Source: Escherichia coli O127:H6 str. E2348/69
GTDB lineage: Bacteria; Pseudomonadota; Gammaproteobacteria; Enterobacterales; Enterobacteriaceae
Length of the DNA stretch: 64,000 nt
Strand: one strand, 5' to 3'
Assembly: GCF_000026545.1 (NCBI RefSeq)
Contig: NC_011601.1
In this document: positions 12,875 to 52,413 of the stretch, piece after piece
How the letters are laid out: every line of letters begins with the position of its first letter
Position numbering within the stretch: the first letter of the stretch is position 1
Program-made: the position numbers and the translations under genes
Notes under the pieces: generated by a model
Told to the model about the DNA's origin: nothing
Database searches by the model: none
The model's input: only the letters and a program-made list of their open reading frames with translations

Positions 12875-14098
12875 TTACATTCCAACCATATTGTTCAGTT
12901 GCAGCATCGGCTCGAGGATGGCGATGACGATAAACAGCACCACGCCCGCCATCATCACCACCAGCGCCGGCTCAAACAGCCCTAACGCCAGCCCCACCTG
13001 GGTATCAAATTCCCGTTCCTGGTTGACCGCGGCCTGTTCAAGCATGGTTTCCAGCTCGCCGCTCTGTTCGCCGGAGGCGATCATGTACAGCATCATCGGC
13101 GGGAACAGGCGCAGATCCGCCAGCGCGGCGCGCAGGCTGCTTCCTTCGCGGACGCGATCTGCCGCCAGCAGCAGTTGTTGCTCGACATAACGATTTGCCG
13201 ACACGGCGGCGGCGGTCTGAATGCCTTCCAGCAGCGGAACACTGCTGGCGGTGAGGATGCTTAATGTGCGGGAAAAACGCGCCGTATTCAGTCCGCGCGC
13301 AACACGCCCCGTCACGGGCAAACGCAGCAAGGTTTTATCCCAGCGCAGGCGCATCGCAGGATTTTTGAGTAGCCGTTGCCCCAGCACCAGAAGCCCCAGC
13401 AAACCCGCCAGCCAGTACACGCCGCTGGTCTGTAACGTGTCGCTCATGGCGATGAGCATTCGGGTGGAGGCAGGCAGCGCGTGTCCGAGATGATCAAACT
13501 GTTCGATAATTTTCGGCACTACTGCCGTCAGCAAAATAGTGACCACGCCCGTTGCCACCACCAGCAGTACCAGCGGGTAGAGCATGGCCTGCAGCAGGCG
13601 TGATTTCAGACGCTGCCGCTGTTCGGTGTAATCCGCCAGGCGATTGAGCACCACATCGAGATGCCCGGATTTTTCTCCGGCGGCGACCATCGAACAAAAC
13701 AGGGAGTCAAAGACGCGGGGATGTTCGCGCAGGCTGTCCGACAGGGTATAACCTTCCTGAATCCGGCTGCGCAGCGCCATTCCGAGGCTTTTTACATGCA
13801 GTTTTTCACTTTGCTCACTGACCGCCTGTAAGCAGGTTTCCAGCGGCATTGCTGCCTGCACCAGCGTTGCCAGTTGGCGCGTGAACAGCGCCAGATCTGC
13901 CGCCGCCACGCGACGATGTGCGTGCCGCCGACGCTGCAACATTCCCCCTGCAGAAGCATTCATCCGGGCTTCAATGTGCACGGGAATGAGGTCTTTACCG
14001 CGCAACAACTGGCGGGCATGACGCGCTGAATCCGCCTCAATCATGCCTTTGGTTTTGCGACCATTACGCTCCAGCGCCTGATAGTAAAACAGTGCCAT
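12875..14098 (-). CDS. gspF: Type II secretion inner-membrane platform protein F
   Basis: 407-aa polytopic GspF/PilC-like protein between gspE and gspG. Confidence 0.85.
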   Translation of the reverse strand: MALFYYQALERNGRKTKGMIEADSARHARQLLRGKDLIPVHIEARMNASAGGMLQRRRHAHRRVAAADLALFTRQLATLVQAAMPLETCLQAVSEQSEKLHVKSLGMALRSRIQEGYTLSDSLREHPRVFDSLFCSMVAAGEKSGHLDVVLNRLADYTEQRQRLKSRLLQAMLYPLVLLVVATGVVTILLTAVVPKIIEQFDHLGHALPASTRMLIAMSDTLQTSGVYWLAGLLGLLVLGQRLLKNPAMRLRWDKTLLRLPVTGRVARGLNTARFSRTLSILTASSVPLLEGIQTAAAVSANRYVEQQLLLAADRVREGSSLRAALADLRLFPPMMLYMIASGEQSGELETMLEQAAVNQEREFDTQVGLALGLFEPALVVMMAGVVLFIVIAILEPMLQLNNMVGM

Positions 14099-38814: not shown

Positions 38815-39063
38815 ATGGTAAATCGTGAAATAGTAATGGATTACATCCTTTCCTGTTTACAGGATTTGGTCGAAAACGGTGTGGAAATTAAGCCCGACAG
38901 CGATCTCGTCAACGATCTTGGCCTGGAGTCGATCAAAGTGATGGATCTCTTAATGATGCTGGAAGACAGATTCGATATTTCCATTCCTATTAATATTCTG
39001 CTGGATGTCAAAACCCCTGCGCAATTAATGGAAACTCTACTTCCATGGCTGGAGAATAAATAA
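38815..39063 (+). CDS. Acyl carrier protein (dedicated ACP)
   Basis: 82 aa with phosphopantetheine-attachment motif DLGLESIKVMDL; stop overlaps the next start (TAATG). Confidence 0.75.
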   Translation: MVNREIVMDYILSCLQDLVENGVEIKPDSDLVNDLGLESIKVMDLLMMLEDRFDISIPINILLDVKTPAQLMETLLPWLENK

Positions 39064-40235
39064 TGGGGCTATACGATAAATATGCGCGCCTTGCTGGCGA
39101 GCGCCTGCAATTTAGTGATAACGGGTTAACACCATTTGGCACCTGTATTGATGAAGTATATTCCGCCACCGAAGGCCGGATCGGCAATAAAAAAGTGATT
39201 CTGGCCGGGACCAATAATTATCTCGGTTTAACCTTTAATCATGATGCTATCCGCGAAGGTCAGGCAGCGTTAGCGGCCCAAGGCACTGGCACCACCGGTT
39301 CTCGTATGGCAAACGGCAGTTATGCGCCGCATCTGGCGTTAGAGAAAGAGATTGCCGAGTTTTTCAATCGCCCTACCGCTATCGTTTTTTCAACCGGTTA
39401 TACAGCTAATTTAGGCGTCATCAGCGCACTTGCCGACCATAACGCCGTGGTGTTACTGGATGCCGACAGCCACGCCAGTATTTATGACGCCTGTTCTCTC
39501 GGCGGCGCAGAGATTATTCGTTTCCGCCATAATGACGTCAACGATCTGGAACGGCGCATGGTCCGCCTCGGTGAACGGGCGAAAGAGGCGATTATTATCG
39601 TTGAAGGCATCTACAGTATGCTCGGTGACGTTGCGCCGCTGGCAGAAATTGTTGATATCAAACGTCGTCTCGGTGGTTATTTGATTGTCGATGAAGCACA
39701 TTCGTTTGGCGTGTTAGGCGTAACAGGCCGCGGACTGGTTGAAGCCGTTGGCGTTGAAGACGACGTGGATATTATCGTCGGCACCTTCAGTAAAAGTTTG
39801 GCTTCCATTGGTGGTTTTGCCGTGGGTTCAGAAGCGATGGAAGTGCTGCGCTACGGCAGCCGCCCGTATATTTTTACCGCCTCTCCTTCTCCGTCCTGCA
39901 TTGCGACCGTGCGCTCGTCGTTAAGAACCATTGCCACACAACCAGAGTTGCGGCAAAAACTGATGGATAACGCCAACCATCTGTATGACGGTCTGCAAAA
40001 ACTGGGTTACGAGTTAAGTTCACATATTAGCCCGGTAGTGCCAGTAATAATCGGTTCGAAAGAGGAAGGTTTACGCATCTGGCGCGAGCTTATTTCGCTG
40101 GGCGTTTATGTGAATCTTATCCTGCCACCTGCCGCGCCTGCAGGCATCACGCTGCTGCGCTGTAGCGTAAACGCTGCCCACAGTCGTGAGCAAATCGATG
40201 CCATCATTCAGGCATTTGCTACTCTGAAGCAGTAA
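39063..40235 (+). CDS. Alpha-oxoamine synthase-family PLP enzyme (serine palmitoyltransferase / BioF / Kbl-like)
   Basis: 390 aa with PLP-lysine motif GTFSKSLASIGGF and a glycine-rich N-terminal region; 1-nt overlap with the ACP stop. Confidence 0.8.
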   Translation: MGLYDKYARLAGERLQFSDNGLTPFGTCIDEVYSATEGRIGNKKVILAGTNNYLGLTFNHDAIREGQAALAAQGTGTTGSRMANGSYAPHLALEKEIAEFFNRPTAIVFSTGYTANLGVISALADHNAVVLLDADSHASIYDACSLGGAEIIRFRHNDVNDLERRMVRLGERAKEAIIIVEGIYSMLGDVAPLAEIVDIKRRLGGYLIVDEAHSFGVLGVTGRGLVEAVGVEDDVDIIVGTFSKSLASIGGFAVGSEAMEVLRYGSRPYIFTASPSPSCIATVRSSLRTIATQPELRQKLMDNANHLYDGLQKLGYELSSHISPVVPVIIGSKEEGLRIWRELISLGVYVNLILPPAAPAGITLLRCSVNAAHSREQIDAIIQAFATLKQ

Positions 40236-40240
40236 TGTGA

Positions 40241-40269
40241 ACCCGCCGTGGTGTTGCGCCACGGCGGGT
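40241..40269. terminator. Bidirectional hairpin terminator between convergent operons
   Basis: 11-bp perfect stem ACCCGCCGTGG / CCACGGCGGGT with a 7-nt loop, directly after the oxoamine synthase stop and abutting the LptG-like stop. Confidence 0.55.
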
Positions 40270-41349
40270 TTAATGTTGTCTGTCATGCCAATACACCAGG
40301 CTCAACGCCACCAGCACAAACGCTACCGGTAAACCGAGCGCGGTAACAGGTGCGCTCAACGCAAATAGCAATCCCAGATTGACCATGATTTGATAGCTGA
40401 TCCAGGTGAGTAAACCAACGATGACCCCTACAGCGAGACGGCTACCCATCCTAGGCGAGCGCGGGGCACTAAAGGTAAACGGCACAGCCAGCAAAATCAT
40501 CGCCAGAGTCAAGATGGGTTGCCCCAGTTTTTCCCACAGTGCAAGGCGGTATTCGCTGCTGGGTTGCCCGGTTTCCTGCAAATAATGGATGTAATGATTA
40601 AGCTGACGGACAGAAAAAGTATTTCCCGGCATCGATAACTCTTCAAGATTCATACTGGTGAAGGTCGATTGCCAGGCAAGATAATCAGATGTTTCCTGCG
40701 TTTCTTTGCCATTCAGCCATTTTTTATGATTCACACCATGCAGGATCCACGTTTTGTCATCTTCAATGGTGGCACTGCGCGCATAAATGTAGGATTCGAG
40801 CGAGAGATCATCGCGGTAATGAAATATCTCCACGTCCACCGGCTGGCCCTGCTCGTTCAGCGATTTCACCGTCACAAATTCATTACCACGCCTGGCCCAC
40901 AGCATATTGCCGGTAATGTCATCGTCCTCCCCCAACGCAGTGGCAGTCGATTTGATTTGCAGCGCCTGTTGCTGCAATGGCGACGCCACCCACTCATCTA
41001 TCGCGCCTAATGAAACAGTCCACAATATCCCGGCAACCAGCGCCACCAGTGCAATACGGAAGATAGAAAACCCCGTGCTGCGAATGGCGGTAAGCTCACT
41101 GTTTTTCGATAACTGCCCCAGGCCGACAATCCCTCCCAATAAGGCGATAAACGGCGAAAGTTCGACCAGTGTGCGCGGTAAGGTCATCAGCACCACCAGC
41201 ACCGCCTGAGTCCAGCGATAACCACCCGGGCTGACATCATCCAGTTCGTTAATCAGGTTGAAGGTGGTAAAAAGCGGCAGCAATAGCCCTGCGGCGGCGG
41301 CAAAACCGAGAAAGAGATGACGGATTAAATAGCGACTGAAAACATTCAT
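40270..41349 (-). CDS. LptG-like permease (YjgP/YjgQ family)
   Basis: About 359 aa from ATG 41349 (ATGA overlap with upstream gene); N-terminus MNVFSRYLIRHLFLGF resembles LptF/LptG-type permeases. Confidence 0.65.
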   Translation of the reverse strand: MNVFSRYLIRHLFLGFAAAAGLLLPLFTTFNLINELDDVSPGGYRWTQAVLVVLMTLPRTLVELSPFIALLGGIVGLGQLSKNSELTAIRSTGFSIFRIALVALVAGILWTVSLGAIDEWVASPLQQQALQIKSTATALGEDDDITGNMLWARRGNEFVTVKSLNEQGQPVDVEIFHYRDDLSLESYIYARSATIEDDKTWILHGVNHKKWLNGKETQETSDYLAWQSTFTSMNLEELSMPGNTFSVRQLNHYIHYLQETGQPSSEYRLALWEKLGQPILTLAMILLAVPFTFSAPRSPRMGSRLAVGVIVGLLTWISYQIMVNLGLLFALSAPVTALGLPVAFVLVALSLVYWHDRQH

Positions 41350-42416
41350 CGGGAAAATTTCTGCAGCAAAGAGAAGTCGCGTGCGACCAACATCAGCAGG
41401 CCCATTAGCATGAGTCCGGGTACTAACCACAAACCAGGAATGAGGGGAATCGCGCCGTTAGCCACCAGCGTACGGCAGACGTCGCCGCCATAAAAAATGG
41501 CAACAAACAGCAACGTCAGTGGCAATAACGTTGAAAATCGCCCTTGCCGCGGTTTTACCCGACTTAATGAAATGGCCAGCAGCGCCATCAACAATGCTGT
41601 CAGGCCACGGCTTTGTCGCCATTGCAGTTCGGCATGATCGGCAGGAAAGGCGGAGCGCGCCAGCTCCGTGACCGATTTTGCTTTGCGTTTGACGTTAGGG
41701 CTTTGATCCAGCGGATTCAGATGTAATTGCAGATTACGGTAGATCTGTTCGTTGTCGTCACGCCCCTGATGATCGAGAAGATAGGCGGTCCCGTTATGCA
41801 ACATAACGGTCGGTTTCTCAGGTGATGGGTCAACCACATCAACCGAACGGGCGCGGAAAATGCGGGTTCGATTAGCAGTAGAAGTATAAATCAGCGCGTC
41901 AGTCAGGCGATTATTATCCTGATCAACCGTCTGCGAAAGGATCATTCGTCCGTTATCGTTAGTGTTAAATTGCTTTGCCCGCAACTGGCGAACATCCAGC
42001 TCCGACTGTGACTGTTGCTCCAGTTGATAAATCTGCGCATAAGCCCACGGACGACCATACATCGACAGAAGGGTGACAAAAATACTTAGCGGTATCGCCA
42101 GATAAAGAACGGCTTTGTACAAGCGTCCCGGACTGCCCCCCGCCGCAGAGATAGCGGTAATTTCCGAGTCGGTATACATCTGCCCTAGCGTCACGCCAAC
42201 TGACACATACAGTCCAACAGGTAACAACATCTCCAGTGCAATCAGCACTTTGTAGAAAACGATATCCAGCACAACATCAAGAGCTAATGTCCCATTTGCC
42301 GCTTCGGTCAGATAACGCTGTGCGGAGTAGCTGGCGAAAATAAAGATCAGAAAACCGACGATAATCAGCACCAGACGGCGCGTACCACGCATGATGTAGT
42401 GTTCAACCAGCTTCAT
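41346..42416 (-). CDS. LptF-like permease (YjgP/YjgQ family)
   Basis: 356 aa, MKLVEHYIMRGTRRLVLIIVGFLIF...; paired with the LptG-like gene. Confidence 0.65.
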   Translation of the reverse strand: MKLVEHYIMRGTRRLVLIIVGFLIFIFASYSAQRYLTEAANGTLALDVVLDIVFYKVLIALEMLLPVGLYVSVGVTLGQMYTDSEITAISAAGGSPGRLYKAVLYLAIPLSIFVTLLSMYGRPWAYAQIYQLEQQSQSELDVRQLRAKQFNTNDNGRMILSQTVDQDNNRLTDALIYTSTANRTRIFRARSVDVVDPSPEKPTVMLHNGTAYLLDHQGRDDNEQIYRNLQLHLNPLDQSPNVKRKAKSVTELARSAFPADHAELQWRQSRGLTALLMALLAISLSRVKPRQGRFSTLLPLTLLFVAIFYGGDVCRTLVANGAIPLIPGLWLVPGLMLMGLLMLVARDFSLLQKFSR

Positions 42417-45995: not shown

Positions 45996-46026
45996 TCGTT
46001 AAATCATCCCCTATCCATTTTGGTGA

Positions 46027-46740
46027 TCAGGAAAGCGCGGCGTGAATTGCGCGTAGTGACGCTTGCAGAATTTCATCGGCTGGTTGCCGACCATCCAGTT
46101 CAAGGATCTTTGCGCCATTGAATGTCAGTTGCGGCGTAACGGCGATTTTTTCCTGTAACGCTGCCAGTTGGTGGTCAGGTTTACGCGCAAACGCGGTTTG
46201 TTCATCAATGCCAAGACGAATCAACAATACGGGCAAATAAGACGCCATCCATTGGTACAGCTTCAGCTCGCGCTGCCTTAACATTTTTATCCAACCGTTA
46301 CCGCCCGTGGTTTTTGCCAATTGCGGGCCATCAAAGCGAAAACCCGGCACTTCAACCTGCGGGTAGCGGTCGGTGATGAGCAGATAGCCTTGCTGGCTTT
46401 TACACAACATTTTGCGAAACTTGTACGCCCGCCAGCAGGAAAGCAGATAGATAACCAGCGCAGTAATATTGCCAGGCGGTGTTAAGGGCTTTTCGTGCAC
46501 ATGTGCCGCTTTACTTCGCAAATAACGCCCAAAAGGTGCGCCAATAACAGGGAGCTGTGAAATCCATTCGCCAATTCGCCCGGACGATTGCCCGAGATAA
46601 ATGTGTTCTGTTGGCATTCTTGATGCCAGTTCATTTACCAGGCTTGCCGTGAGGGTCGATTTACCTGAACCATCACATCCTACAATGGCAATAACACGCA
46701 CTGGCGTGGAATTAATTATTGACATATTACGTTGATTCAC
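46027..46740 (-). CDS. yghS: YghS, P-loop kinase-like protein, paralog of YghR/YghT
   Basis: Walker A VGCDGSGKSTL plus LITDRYPQ. Confidence 0.75.
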   Translation of the reverse strand: MNQRNMSIINSTPVRVIAIVGCDGSGKSTLTASLVNELASRMPTEHIYLGQSSGRIGEWISQLPVIGAPFGRYLRSKAAHVHEKPLTPPGNITALVIYLLSCWRAYKFRKMLCKSQQGYLLITDRYPQVEVPGFRFDGPQLAKTTGGNGWIKMLRQRELKLYQWMASYLPVLLIRLGIDEQTAFARKPDHQLAALQEKIAVTPQLTFNGAKILELDGRQPADEILQASLRAIHAALS

Positions 46741-46914
46741 GAAAAACCCGGCAGCAAATAATGTATTGAATATTACGTGGTCCGTGCTCAGAATATCCGT
46801 TCAACCTTATTGTGACAATGGTTAATTGTGACATTGACCTGAATTACGCTTTCATCAAAAACATATTAACCAAATAAATATTTTGGATGGACATTTAAAT
46901 TTAAGGATATATTC

Positions 46915-47607
46915 ATGCAGTCAATAATACCTCCATTAATTGCCGTTATTGGTAGCGATGGTTCAGGCAAGTCAACGGTGTGTGAACATCTTATTACCGT
47001 TGTCGAAAAATATGGTGCTGCCGAAAGGGTTCATTTAGGAAAACAGGCCGGAAATGTCGGTCGTGCAGTGACAAAATTACCGTTGATGGGAAAATCCTTA
47101 CATAAAACAATTGAACGAAATCAGGTAAAAATAGCAAAAAAATTGCCGGGACCAGTTCCGGCGCTGGTAATTACAGCGTTTGTCGCCCGCCGCTTACTGC
47201 GCTTTCGTCATATGCTTGCCTGTCGTCGTCGCGGGTTAATTGTTTTAACCGACCGTTATCCGCAGGAACAGATTCCTGGCGCTTATGATGGTACGGTGTT
47301 CCCGCCTAACGTTGAAGGTGGTCGTTTTGTCTCATGGCTGGCAAGTCAGGAACGTAAAGCATTTCACTGGATGGCGAGCCATAAGCCCGATCTGGTCATC
47401 AAACTCAATGTCGATCTGGACGTAGCCTGCGCGCGTAAGCCTGACCACAAAAGAGAATCGCTGGAAAGGAAGATAGCAATAACGCCACAGTTAACCTTTG
47501 GAGGCGCGCAACTGGTTGATATCGATGCCAATCAACCGCTGGAACAAGTGCTGGTTGATGCGGAAAAAGCGATTACGGATTTTATGACCGCGCGTGGTTA
47601 TCACTAG
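46915..47607 (+). CDS. yghT: YghT, P-loop kinase-like protein, paralog of YghR/YghS
   Basis: Walker [12 protein letters not shown] plus LTDRYPQ; ATG with an AAGGA ribosome-binding site upstream. Confidence 0.75.
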
Positions 47608-47617
47608 TCAAAAATGG

Positions 47618-47648
47618 AAATGCCCGATCGCCAGGACCGGGCATTTTC
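47618..47648. terminator. Bidirectional intrinsic terminator shared by yghT and pitB
   Basis: Stem AAATGCCCG / CGGGCATTT with an 11-nt loop, flanked by an A-run upstream and a T-run downstream. Confidence 0.5.
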
Positions 47649-47655
47649 AGGAAGG

Positions 47656-49155
47656 TTAAATCAACTGCAATGCTATCCAGTACAACCCACCAGAAAGAAA
47701 AATCGCCGCCGGTAAAGTAAATACCCACGCCATCAGGATGCTGGTTACCGTTTTACGCTGTAACCCACCGCCGTCCACCACCATCGTCCCTGCTACTGCA
47801 GACGAGAGTACGTGTGTTGTGGAGACGGGCATCCCAATATAACTGGCAAGGCCGATAGACACTGCCGCCGTCATCTGTGCCGCCATGCCTTGCGCATACG
47901 TCATGCCGCGCTTACCAATCTTCTCACCGATGGTCATCGCTACACGACGCCAGCCAATCATGGTGCCGATGCCGAGCGCCAGTGCTACCGCCATGATGAT
48001 CCATACCGGTGCGTACTCAATGGTGCTTAACATATCGCTGCGCAGTTTTTTCAGCAGGTTCTGGTCTTCTTTACTGACGCCTGGCAGTTTCGCCAGCTTC
48101 GCGGAGGTATCAGAGATGCACAGCATAATGCGGCGCAGCTGGCTGCGCTGACTCACGCTTAACGGCTCGTAACTTTCCATATTGCCTGGCAGCATCGTTT
48201 TAACGCGCGCAATCGCATCAAAGGTATTTGCCGGATGACAGTGAAACTCTGTTACTTGCGTGCCATCAGTCGATGTCGCAGGCAATGGAGGTTCCATCGT
48301 AATCAACTTCTGCGGCAGTTCAGGATGCTGTTGCAGGTAGTGTTCGAAGTTGGTGACGGCATCGCGGGTACGGGTAATTTCATAGCCGGACGCATTCATA
48401 TTGACGACAAACCCGGCGGGAGCAATCCCCACCAGCACCAGCATCACCAGACCAATTCCTTTCTGCCCGTCGTTCGCGCCGTGCGAAAACGCCACGCCCG
48501 CAGCGGAAACAATGAGGGCAATACGCGTCCAGAATGGCGGCTTACGTTTGCCTTTTTTCTTTTGGCGATCTTCCGGAATGCGGTGAATACGGTCACGCTT
48601 TTTCGTCCCGCTCCAGTAGCGACGCAGCAGAAAAATCAGCCCCCCCGCAATCACCAGCCCCACGATGGGGGAGACAATGAGTGAAGAGAAAATCTTGGTG
48701 ACTTCGCGCAGGTTTAACGCATCCATCACCGACGAACCATTTAACAGCGCGTTGGTTAAACCGATGCCGATAATCGCACCAATCAAAGTGTGCGAACTGG
48801 AGGCCGGTAAACCAAAGAACCACGTTCCCAGATTCCAGATAATCGCCGCCAGCAGCATGGAAAAGACCATCGCCAGACCGTGAGTTGACCCCATATTCAG
48901 CAACAAATCGGTTGGCAACATATGGACGATGGCATAGGCAACGCTAAGCCCGCCAAGCAATACGCCAAAAAAGTTAAAAAATGCCGCCATGACTACAGCA
49001 AGCTGTGGTTGCATGGCACGGGTATAAATAACGGTTGCCACCGCATTCGCTGTGTCATGAAAACCATTGATTGCTTCATAGAACAACACAAATGCCAGAG
49101 CAAGTAATAACAAAAGCCCCGTATATATATCAAGGCCAACAAATAAATTTAGCAT
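47656..49155 (-). CDS. pitB: Low-affinity inorganic phosphate transporter
   Basis: 499-aa PiT-family transporter with [15 protein letters not shown] motif; pitB rather than pitA by genomic context. Confidence 0.85.
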
Positions 49156-49397
49156 ATATTAGATTACGCCATTTTGAATTTACGAACGGAGGCATTATCA
49201 GTGACTTTCACGGCGTGGGCAAAGTGAAATATCATTTTTTAACGATAAAAAGCGTGTTATTTCTTGTGTATCAGACAATAAGCCTTCATTCAAAGCTTTT
49301 AGAAATAATTAATACACTGAAATTTCGTTAGTTGATATATTCATGTACAGAATACATATATAATAAATATATAAGAATTAAATGCTTTGATTAATCC

Positions 49398-49428
49398 CCG
49401 TACTGATTATTCATCATAATCAGTACGG
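49398..49428. other. 13-bp perfect inverted repeat (stem-loop) in the gss 3' region
   Basis: CCGTACTGATTAT (49398-49410) / ATAATCAGTACGG (49416-49428) with a 5-nt loop, 18 nt downstream of the gss stop; no U-tract on the gss strand. Confidence 0.5.
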
Positions 49429-49445
49429 AGTTGCTACAACATGTA

Positions 49446-51308
49446 TTACTCTTTTACCACAATTAACGGCTCAATATCACTCTCTTTTTTGATGACCAGT
49501 GATTCATCACCGCGTAAGCAAGTCCCACCGTAGTTGCCGCCAACGGTGAAGGTACATACCTGAATGTATTTACCGTCCACTTTCGGCAAACACCACAGTT
49601 GCTGATAGATGTTTTTCTGCTCGGCAAATTTACCGCTGGTTTTGTCCAGCACCTCTTCATGATGGCTGACGAGGTCGATGTTACTGCCACAGCGACCGGC
49701 GATCGGTTTAACGGCATAACCGGTTTTCACCAGCTCATCATTCACGGTGAAGTCAGTATCCAACAGATAACGATGGTGCGGGAACAGAGACCAGAGGATC
49801 GGCAGAATCGCTTTGTTGCCGGGGATCACTGTCCACAGAGGTTCAAAGACCAGCACTTCCGGGCGCAGCAATACGTCGATAAGACGCACTTCATTTTGCG
49901 GATGACCGGTACGGATCGGCACCGCAGCAAACTCACGGTCGCTAACTTCACGAATCTGATCAAACGCGGTTTCCCACGCCCAGGTTTTCCACACGCAGTT
50001 AACCAGTCGCCCTTCCCCATCAATCAGTTGCCCGGCAGCATCCCAGCCCAGTTCATCCAGCCCGCGCAAGATACGCGTTTCAAAGCCCGCCTGGTGCAGC
50101 GCCTGCTCCATAAACTGCGCGTGATAGTTTTCCTCGATATCTTTGTCCTGCATGATATGGACAAACGGACGTGCACGACTGTGTTTCCAGGCACCAGCCA
50201 GTTCGTTAATCAGCCCTTCCGCCGGATTGAAGCCGTTGCCTTTATAGCCCTGCTCCGCCCAACGTTCGAGGATCAAGCCAGCTTCGGTATGACAGGAGGC
50301 GGAGTCGGCGTTGTATTCGTAGACCTTCAGGCCACGTTCGTCCATACAGAAATCCATACGACCGGTGATCATATGGTGACGGCGACGCTGCCAGGAGAGA
50401 CGCAAACGTGGCCAGAGGATTTTTGGGATGTCGAACAGCGCCAGCAGGTTGTCATCTTTCAGCACCTTGTCGGTTGCGTGAAGATACATCAGGTGCAGTT
50501 CGTTGGTGGCTTTAATCAGCTCCTGCTCTGCGCTCTCGGTAATGGTGTAGTAATGATACGGATCCTGATTGATCACCTGACCGTTGGCCTGCACATAGGC
50601 GTTTTGTAGCGGATCTTTTTCATCCAGCCATTTACCGTCAAACTGGCCTTTGTTTTCCAGACGCGCTCCGCTGATTTTCAGCAGCTCGCCTGCAATTTCC
50701 GGCTGCGGTAAGCTGTATTCAGTATCTTCCGTCTGGATCATCCAGCCCAGAATAGTGGTGTCATCGAAGGTGTCTTTCAGGGTATAGCAGCCGTTTTCGA
50801 CCACCATCTCCAGCTCGCGTGTCCACTGTTGCCCTTGCGGCAACGGGGAATGAATCACGTTCTGTTCCGCAATACGGACTTTGTTGCCATGCAATTGGGT
50901 AATGATGGCGACATGGCCAGTGTCTTTAAATTCACCGCCTTTATCCCAGATAAGAAGCGCCCCCGCTACCGGTGCACGCGGCGAACCGTTAGGAAATGCC
51001 TGCAATGGCAGGATGTTGTCATTGACCACTTCACGCAAGAAGCGCAGTGAGAAAATCTCCCATGCCATACCCACGTCAGTGAAGACTACACCGTAGTTCA
51101 GAAAGAGAAAACGGCGAGCAAATTCAACGCATTGCCATTTGTGGCCCATATATTCATCGTCGATATAGCTACGGAATACGGCGTCATCTTCGTATTCCTG
51201 CGGATCGAGAGAACTGTAATCTGAAGAGTAGATTGCTACCCCACCTGGGGCGTAGCCCAATAATGTCCCGAACGGGGCATCCTGGCTGGTCGTTCCTTTG
51301 CTCATCAC
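49446..51308 (-). CDS. gss: Bifunctional glutathionylspermidine synthetase/amidase
   Basis: N-terminus M(M)SKGTTSQDAPFGTLLGYAPGGVAIYSSDYSSLDPQEYEDDAVFR matches Gss; the real start may be the second ATG at 51305. Confidence 0.9.
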   Translation of the reverse strand: MMSKGTTSQDAPFGTLLGYAPGGVAIYSSDYSSLDPQEYEDDAVFRSYIDDEYMGHKWQCVEFARRFLFLNYGVVFTDVGMAWEIFSLRFLREVVNDNILPLQAFPNGSPRAPVAGALLIWDKGGEFKDTGHVAIITQLHGNKVRIAEQNVIHSPLPQGQQWTRELEMVVENGCYTLKDTFDDTTILGWMIQTEDTEYSLPQPEIAGELLKISGARLENKGQFDGKWLDEKDPLQNAYVQANGQVINQDPYHYYTITESAEQELIKATNELHLMYLHATDKVLKDDNLLALFDIPKILWPRLRLSWQRRRHHMITGRMDFCMDERGLKVYEYNADSASCHTEAGLILERWAEQGYKGNGFNPAEGLINELAGAWKHSRARPFVHIMQDKDIEENYHAQFMEQALHQAGFETRILRGLDELGWDAAGQLIDGEGRLVNCVWKTWAWETAFDQIREVSDREFAAVPIRTGHPQNEVRLIDVLLRPEVLVFEPLWTVIPGNKAILPILWSLFPHHRYLLDTDFTVNDELVKTGYAVKPIAGRCGSNIDLVSHHEEVLDKTSGKFAEQKNIYQQLWCLPKVDGKYIQVCTFTVGGNYGGTCLRGDESLVIKKESDIEPLIVVKE

Positions 51309-51509
51309 TTTACCTTTAACAATACAACCTAAGCAGTTGGCGTAATTGTTGTGCTCTGATTACCTGCTCAGCGACATTAACCGGACAGAGGTCAGAGTAA
51401 TCATACACCTCATCGCAGCGGCTGGCGCAAAGGGTTAAAAAATTCACATTCTGTACAGCAAGTGACCTGCTACACTGCTTCAACACTACCACTCAGAAGG
51501 CAACTCACT

Positions 51510-52376
51510 ATGACAGACAATACTTATCAGCCCGCGAAAGTCTGGACGTGGGATAAATCCGCTGGCGGCGCGTTCGCCAGTATCAATCGCCCGATTTCTG
51601 GTCCGACGCATGAAAAAACGCTGCCGGTGGGCAAACATCCATTGCAACTTTATTCGCTGGGAACGCCGAACGGTCAGAAAGTGACGATTATGCTCGAAGA
51701 ACTACTCGCACTGGGCGTTACTGGTGCAGAGTACGACGCCTGGCTGATTCGCATTGGCGATGGCGATCAATTCTCCAGCGGCTTTGTCGAAGTGAACCCG
51801 AATTCGAAGATCCCGGCATTGCGCGATCATACCCATAATCCGCCGATCCGCGTGTTTGAGTCAGGCTCGATTCTGCTTTATCTGGCGGAGAAATTTGGCT
51901 ACTTCTTGCCGCAGGATCTGGCAAAGCGTACTGAAACGATGAGCTGGCTGTTCTGGTTACAGGGCGCGGCACCGTTCCTCGGCGGTGGTTTTGGTCACTT
52001 TTACCATTACGCACCGGTGAAAATTGAGTACGCCATCAACCGCTTTACTATGGAAGCCAAGCGCCTTCTCGACGTGCTGGATAAGCAACTGGCGCAGCAT
52101 AAGTTTGTTGCGGGCGATGAGTACACCATTGCGGATATGGCGATCTGGCCGTGGTTTGGCAATGTGGTGTTAGGCGGCGTATATGATGCCGCAGAGTTTC
52201 TTGATGCGGGCAGTTATAAGCATGTACAACGCTGGGCGAAAGAAGTGGGCGAACGTCCGGCAGTGAAGCGTGGGCGTATTGTTAACCGCATCAACGGACC
52301 GCTGAACGAGCAGTTGCATGAACGCCATGACGCCAGTGATTTCGAGACGAATACGGAAGATAAGCGTCAGGGGTAA
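51510..52376 (+). CDS. yghU: Glutathione S-transferase-like protein YghU
   Basis: 288 aa from ATG 51510 (MTDNTYQPAKVWTWDKSAGG...); the track ORF starts 16 codons upstream. Confidence 0.9.
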   Translation: MTDNTYQPAKVWTWDKSAGGAFASINRPISGPTHEKTLPVGKHPLQLYSLGTPNGQKVTIMLEELLALGVTGAEYDAWLIRIGDGDQFSSGFVEVNPNSKIPALRDHTHNPPIRVFESGSILLYLAEKFGYFLPQDLAKRTETMSWLFWLQGAAPFLGGGFGHFYHYAPVKIEYAINRFTMEAKRLLDVLDKQLAQHKFVAGDEYTIADMAIWPWFGNVVLGGVYDAAEFLDAGSYKHVQRWAKEVGERPAVKRGRIVNRINGPLNEQLHERHDASDFETNTEDKRQG

Positions 52377-52413
52377 TGGTTAGCGTTCGTCGCAGCAAGC
52401 CATCCAGACCAAT

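Follow-up and report, generated by a model that had tools for sequence, protein, structure and literature searches.

A stem-loop without a U-tract downstream of gss in Escherichia coli: a candidate barrier at the 3′ end of the gss mRNA

When an Escherichia coli mRNA has no intrinsic terminator, its steady-state 3′ end lies directly behind a stable stem-loop with no U-rich sequence after it, and such stem-loops have been argued to shield the transcript from PNPase and RNase II once transcription has ended diffusely further downstream (Dar & Sorek 2018, PMC6061677). The same authors proposed that terminators may switch type through their U content, and noted that intermediate states exist (PMC6061677). 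The hairpin described here, which lies between gss and pitB in a 64-kb stretch of the E. coli E2348/69 chromosome (the window), shares with these stem-loops its stability, its position soon after a stop codon, its lack of a U-rich tail, and a folding energy in the range that Dar & Sorek call indistinguishable from that of intrinsic-terminator hairpins (PMC6061677). It differs in that the downstream sequence is AT-rich rather than C-rich, and the stem is long (15 bp) with an AU-rich upper half. Canonical terminators follow gss at the same position in Citrobacter, Enterobacter, Lelliottia, and other genera, likewise with a GC-rich stem base, but the E. coli hairpin lacks their defining 7- to 8-nt U-tract, and the hairpin sequences are unrelated. 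REP/BIME elements are also extragenic palindromes at gene 3′ ends that can stabilise the upstream mRNA, whereas the gss palindrome is single-copy and AT-rich; with one locus per genome and no REP consensus, we rejected both a REP/BIME element and a dispersed repeat.

Because the gss hairpin matches the sequence features of the Dar & Sorek class, with a stable stem-loop and no U-rich sequence after it, we lean toward its being an exonuclease barrier that defines the 3′ end of the gss mRNA, a reading to which we give slightly better than an even chance. We infer this function; the structure, its position, its single copy, its retention, its wobble pattern, and the lack of a U-tract are observed. 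The gss 3′ UTR would fold into a 15-bp stem-loop of roughly −22 kcal/mol, 15 nt past the stop codon, which with no U-tract would at best be a poor self-sufficient terminator, and RNA polymerase would stop somewhere downstream in the AT-rich spacer or continue toward pitB. PNPase and RNase II would then trim the tail until stalled at the base of the helix, leaving the gss mRNA with a defined, protected 3′ end. The stem-loop is most likely an ordinary example of an already described kind of element.

Structure and setting of the hairpin

A repeat search of the window recovered the perfect 13-bp inverted repeat with a 5-nt loop that the original prediction had placed at 49398-49428, and its location 18 nt after the gss stop codon also holds, in that 17 nt separate the stop (49446-49448, − strand) from the stem, which begins at the 18th. 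On the gss strand the RNA helix of E2348/69 extends to 15 pairs, the 13 perfect pairs being followed by U·G and then C-G, and it begins at the 16th nucleotide past the stop; the K-12-type allele has Watson-Crick pairs at all 15 positions. The 35-nt hairpin alone folds at −21.8 kcal/mol as gss-strand RNA, and the base of the stem is GC-rich (CUCCG/CGGGG in E2348/69; CCCCG/CGGGG in K-12). Only 13 bp form in + strand RNA, and the folding z-score is −5.2 on the gss strand (81-nt context) versus −3.9 on the + strand. Coordinates of these and neighbouring features are collected in Table 1.

Table 1. Features of the gss-pitB region, numbered by position in the window
Feature	Position	Strand	Basis or remark
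gss CDS, bifunctional glutathionylspermidine amidase/synthase	49446..51305	−	RefSeq annotation and ORF list
Spacer from gss stop to 15-bp stem, 15 nt	49431..49445	−	Invariant among sampled E. coli
RNA stem-loop of gss transcript	49396..49430	−	Folding and strand-specific wobble variants
Stem-loop, 5′ arm	49430-49416	−	
Stem-loop, loop GAUGA	49415-49411	−	
Stem-loop, 3′ arm	49410-49396	−	
Palindrome arm 1, CCGTACTGATTAT	49398-49410		13 nt, 100% complementary to the other arm
Palindrome arm 2, ATAATCAGTACGG	49416-49428		13 nt, 5 nt from the first arm
U-poor tail AUUAAUCAAA, directly 3′ of stem	49386..49395	−	Kept in E. coli, not in E. albertii
AT-rich (15-18% GC) hypervariable middle of the spacer	49284..49385	−	Alignment and composition
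Promoter-like TTGCCC-17-GATAAT	49194..49222	−	Consensus match only; in the conserved pitB-proximal block
pitB CDS, next gene, same strand as gss	47656..49155	−	RefSeq annotation

Among hairpins with loops of 3-10 nt, the gss palindrome is the longest perfect one in the window, and 100 first-order Markov resamplings of the window yielded a mean of 0.01 perfect stems of at least 13 bp; being both the longest and expected only about 0.01 times, the hairpin is more than a chance occurrence. No second copy of the palindrome pattern was found at up to three mismatches.

The gss-pitB spacer is 290 bp long with 30% GC, against 51.7% for the window, and as a query it matched the E2348/69 chromosome at 100% identity. 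We aligned seven E. coli loci chosen from across the ranking, and found conservation in the sequence from the stop codon through the hairpin to ATTAATCAAA and in the 130 nt nearest pitB, with roughly 100 hypervariable nucleotides in the spacer middle between them. Transcripts of gss that pass the hairpin would enter, or end within, the AT-rich middle stretch. Between E2348/69 and K-12, identity falls to 74% in the spacer middle (100-nt windows) versus 95.4% over the 6.3-kb locus, and the whole-spacer allele of E2348/69 is rare, with 12 of 5,426 genomes at least 99% identical. The yghS-yghT-pitB-gss-yghU locus (about 46000-52400) is itself mosaic between these two strains, with coding patches that are 83-90% identical, and the pattern suggests recombination tracts. 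The TTGCCC-17-GATAAT site, whose last base lies 39 nt before the start codon of pitB, is a plausible promoter for this gene, as a consensus match only. Small ORFs in the spacer are only short ones of 20-31 aa, several of them within hypervariable sequence; an 86-aa TTG-start ORF begins inside pitB on the opposite strand.

Pairing on the gss strand and variation within Escherichia

Genome copy number and conservation, both of which the original prediction had proposed to check, are consistent with an element retained at a single locus. The 47-mer centred on the hairpin was matched in 5,402 of 5,426 complete E. coli genomes, and E. albertii and a cryptic Escherichia clade have the hairpin too. 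Each genome carries it at one locus; the median of two match 'places' comes from the self-match of the palindrome on the opposite strand, which we reproduced locally. Counting exact 47-mer matches to seven haplotypes, with 228 genomes carrying others, we found the K-12 type with 15 Watson-Crick pairs in 4,069 genomes, the O157/O55 type (two U·G pairs, from C>U at pair 1 and from A>G in the 3′ arm) in 552, the PSS-12 type (a single G·U pair, from C>U in the 3′ arm) in 461, and the E2348/69 type (a single U·G pair, from C>U at pair 2, with the loop GAUGA) in 44, counts that reflect clonal sampling and not independent events. These three wobble haplotypes amount to 1,057 genomes, and each of the four changes in their stems, read on the gss strand, is a C>U or an A>G. 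Pair-breaking haplotypes were identified in 48 of about 5,400 genomes: B771, with an A·C mismatch (27 genomes), TCM3e1, with U·U (12), and Z1323, with C·A at pair 2 (9). The cryptic-clade genome has a U·G at pair 1. E. albertii retains the whole interior 13-bp helix with a further U·G (A>G), the fifth transition, while its loop and all sequence 3′ of the stem are too different to be recognised.

All five of the transitions seen in common alleles or sister species give G·U-type pairs in gss-strand RNA; in + strand RNA the same five are C·A mismatches, and each also breaks the DNA dyad. If both transition classes are equally likely, five of five preserving the gss-strand pairing has a p of about 0.03. 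Paired cells make up 96.3% on the gss strand versus 93.3% on the + strand, with five versus two extra wobble pair types. There are no compensatory double substitutions in the stem, the support coming from wobble changes only, and the shuffle controls were not significant. That the variants in common alleles and sister species wobble on the gss strand alone, and that pair-breaking alleles are so rare, we take as moderate evidence for a hairpin in the RNA of the gss transcript, the palindrome probably acting as RNA and not as DNA.

A role in DNA, whether as the target of a dimeric protein that regulates pitB or gss or as a cruciform-prone site, is in our judgment very improbable, although the dyad is perfect in both E2348/69 and K-12, its DNA hairpin form reaches −12.4 kcal/mol (z −7.8), and its half-sites resemble TACTG/CAGTA of LexA and TGATTAT/ATAATCA of a Fur 7-1-7 arrangement. 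The LexA SOS box has the consensus CTG-N10-CAG with an AT-rich centre, and the Fur box is a 19-bp sequence, GATAATGATAATCATTATC, with a 7-1-7 dyad. We rejected both identities, the first with a spacing of CTG-N15-CAG, not N10, and a best 20-mer match of 10/20 to the consensus, and the second with half-sites arranged 7-5-7 and a best match of 12/19 that is equalled or beaten by 135 sites in the window. (The window maximum in this control scan is a 16/19 Fur-box match at 12519-12537 on the + strand, inside an ORF at 12403..12885 on the − strand.) Against a DNA site also stand the more than 1,000 genomes carrying haplotypes in which the dyad is broken on one arm only, and the placement of the hairpin 3′ of gss, about 175 bp upstream of the sole pitB promoter-like site. 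PhoB control of pitB through the hairpin was rejected as well, since in ChIP-seq PhoB did not bind the region upstream of pitB (PMC10294691); pitB remains among the PhoB targets given in RegulonDB. The protein-binding palindrome offered in the original prediction thus fares poorly on its broken dyad, on LexA and Fur spacing and scores, and on its distance from the pitB promoter-like site.

The same prediction had raised cleavage by RNase III, which would separate or destabilise the gss and pitB transcripts. The duplex is perfect and lies in the untranslated spacer of two same-strand genes, which speaks for such a site, but the 15-bp helix falls short of the approximately 22 bp accommodated in the valley of the enzyme (PMC6212723), and we consider this reading extremely unlikely.

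An Rfam scan of positions 48900-49700, at E values up to 10, returned two chance-level hits of 15 bits versus gathering scores of 100 and 65.

Termination and transcript 3′ ends

Several features of a canonical intrinsic terminator are present, namely a stable stem-loop (15 bp, −21.8 kcal/mol) with a GC-rich base near the stop codon. The 7- to 8-nt U-tract directly 3′ of the stem is absent, however: the first eight nucleotides on the gss strand, AUUAAUCA, contain three U, and the decaying U-tract score of the tail is 1.19, versus 5.13 for U8 (the + strand tail scores 0.71). A consensus terminator scan did not call the hairpin. With no U-tract, the structure is not a canonical intrinsic terminator, and on both counts, the missing U-tract and the unlikeness to such a terminator, the original prediction was right.

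The main rival to the exonuclease barrier is a weak or factor-assisted terminator of non-canonical type, perhaps helped by NusA/NusG, in which the hairpin would release RNA polymerase at AUUAAUC; it would insulate pitB from gss read-through and is compatible with a protective role. We consider it fairly unlikely. The GC-rich stem base (CCCCG/CGGGG in K-12), the UU at tail positions 2-3, and the invariance of the tail ATTAATCAAA within E. coli are consistent with it, as are the canonical terminators at the same position in about half of gss orthologues and the type switching and intermediate states noted by Dar & Sorek (PMC6061677). Against it are the low U content and tail score (3 U in 8; 1.19 versus 5.1 for U8), the silent terminator scan, the loss of the tail in E. 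albertii, and the Term-seq data of Adams et al. 2021, which have no 3′ end at the hairpin.

Of the two refuting observations named with the original prediction, the lack of conservation among close relatives does not apply, as the palindrome is conserved. As for the other, the mapping of transcript 3′ ends, the complete Term-seq tables of Adams et al. 2021, covering LB at OD 0.4 and 2.0 and M63, contain no 3′ end at 31364xx-31366xx (the K-12 counterpart of 49386-49396 being about 3,136,605-3,136,613) and no entry for 'gss' or 'pitB', and the same study reports no bicyclomycin-sensitive (Rho) region on the same strand between 3,098,133 and 3,139,530. The absence of 3′ ends may reflect low gss expression in those cultures. 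The TERMITe supplements likewise have no gss entry, and our literature search found no paper naming gss and pitB together. Rho dependence of gss termination is not supported: the 100 nt downstream of the stem contain 10 C and 8 G (C/G 1.25) with six YC dimers, and with so few C, and few G too, this stretch is a poor rut candidate.

We also considered a self-sufficient U-less terminator or insulator specific to the genus and born with the insertion of pitB, or a hairpin bound by a specific RNA-binding protein. Either seems quite improbable; the RNA-binding protein would explain why the 15 nt upstream and the 10 nt downstream of the stem are invariant in E. coli.

Hairpins after gss across the Enterobacteriaceae

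A genome scan for Gss gave 80 loci, one per species, and we folded 80 loci made up of 78 from the scan, the E2348/69 window, and one other. In 79 of these 80 enterobacterial loci a hairpin at least as stable as −12 kcal/mol lies within 100 nt of the gss stop codon, with unrelated sequences. A canonical hairpin with a U-tract was found by strict scan in 38 of the 80, and a strong hairpin without a U-tract in about 35, Salmonella, Klebsiella, and Raoultella among them; in about seven others a U run follows an imperfect stem, and as these are counted as lacking a U-tract the 38/42 split is approximate. This mixture of U-tract and U-less forms after gss fits the type switching described by Dar & Sorek. 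The sequence of the post-stop hairpin differs in almost every genus.

The original prediction had named an RNA 3′-end stabiliser, an RNase III site, and a protein-binding palindrome without choosing among them. The latter two have proved weak, and it is the first that we favour, on its position after the stop codon, the G·U changes confined to the gss strand, and the equivalent hairpins at 79 of 80 loci.

Only Escherichia has pitB following gss; synteny with the window stops right after gss in Citrobacter, Salmonella, Klebsiella, Enterobacter, and others. This arrangement is consistent with the hairpin being a relic with no current function, either an old terminator or a junction left by the insertion of pitB in an Escherichia ancestor, the palindrome being retained merely through the close kinship of the genomes. 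The stem is no more conserved within E. coli than its immediate flanks, there is no covariation and no reported transcript end, and strain 360D-1 carries an IS1 inside the stem, all of which agree with this reading. We nonetheless judge a relic unlikely, as the interior 13 bp persist in E. albertii despite fully diverged adjacent sequence, five of five transitions preserve gss-strand pairing (p about 0.03), and pair-breaking haplotypes are confined to 48 of about 5,400 genomes. In 360D-1 the IS1 end (GGTAATGACTCC...) is inserted within the 3′ arm of the hairpin. Strain S1-CAM-01-A has an IS5-family ISKpn26 and an IS1 remnant downstream of gss at the usual place of pitB, and pitB is absent among its annotated genes.

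The hairpin has little importance beyond annotation, where it plausibly marks the 3′ limit of the Escherichia gss transcript; the gss 3′ end is a clean example of hairpin turnover, between U-tract and U-less forms, across the Enterobacteriaceae. Weak expression of pitB has long been noted. Were the hairpin enough by itself to halt transcription ahead of pitB, it would make a modest case study of non-canonical termination and of weak pitB expression, and an insulator, if that reading were true, would separate transcription of the poorly expressed pitB from that of gss.

Two other gene ends in the window also carry long perfect hairpins without a U-tract. A 12-bp perfect hairpin at 40240-40270 lies between the convergent ORFs 39063..40235 (+) and 40270..41430 (−), and another 12-bp perfect hairpin, at 25160-25190, lies just after the ORF 25198..26880 (−). 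With many such hairpins after gss and at these gene ends, a U-less stem-loop following gss is unremarkable.
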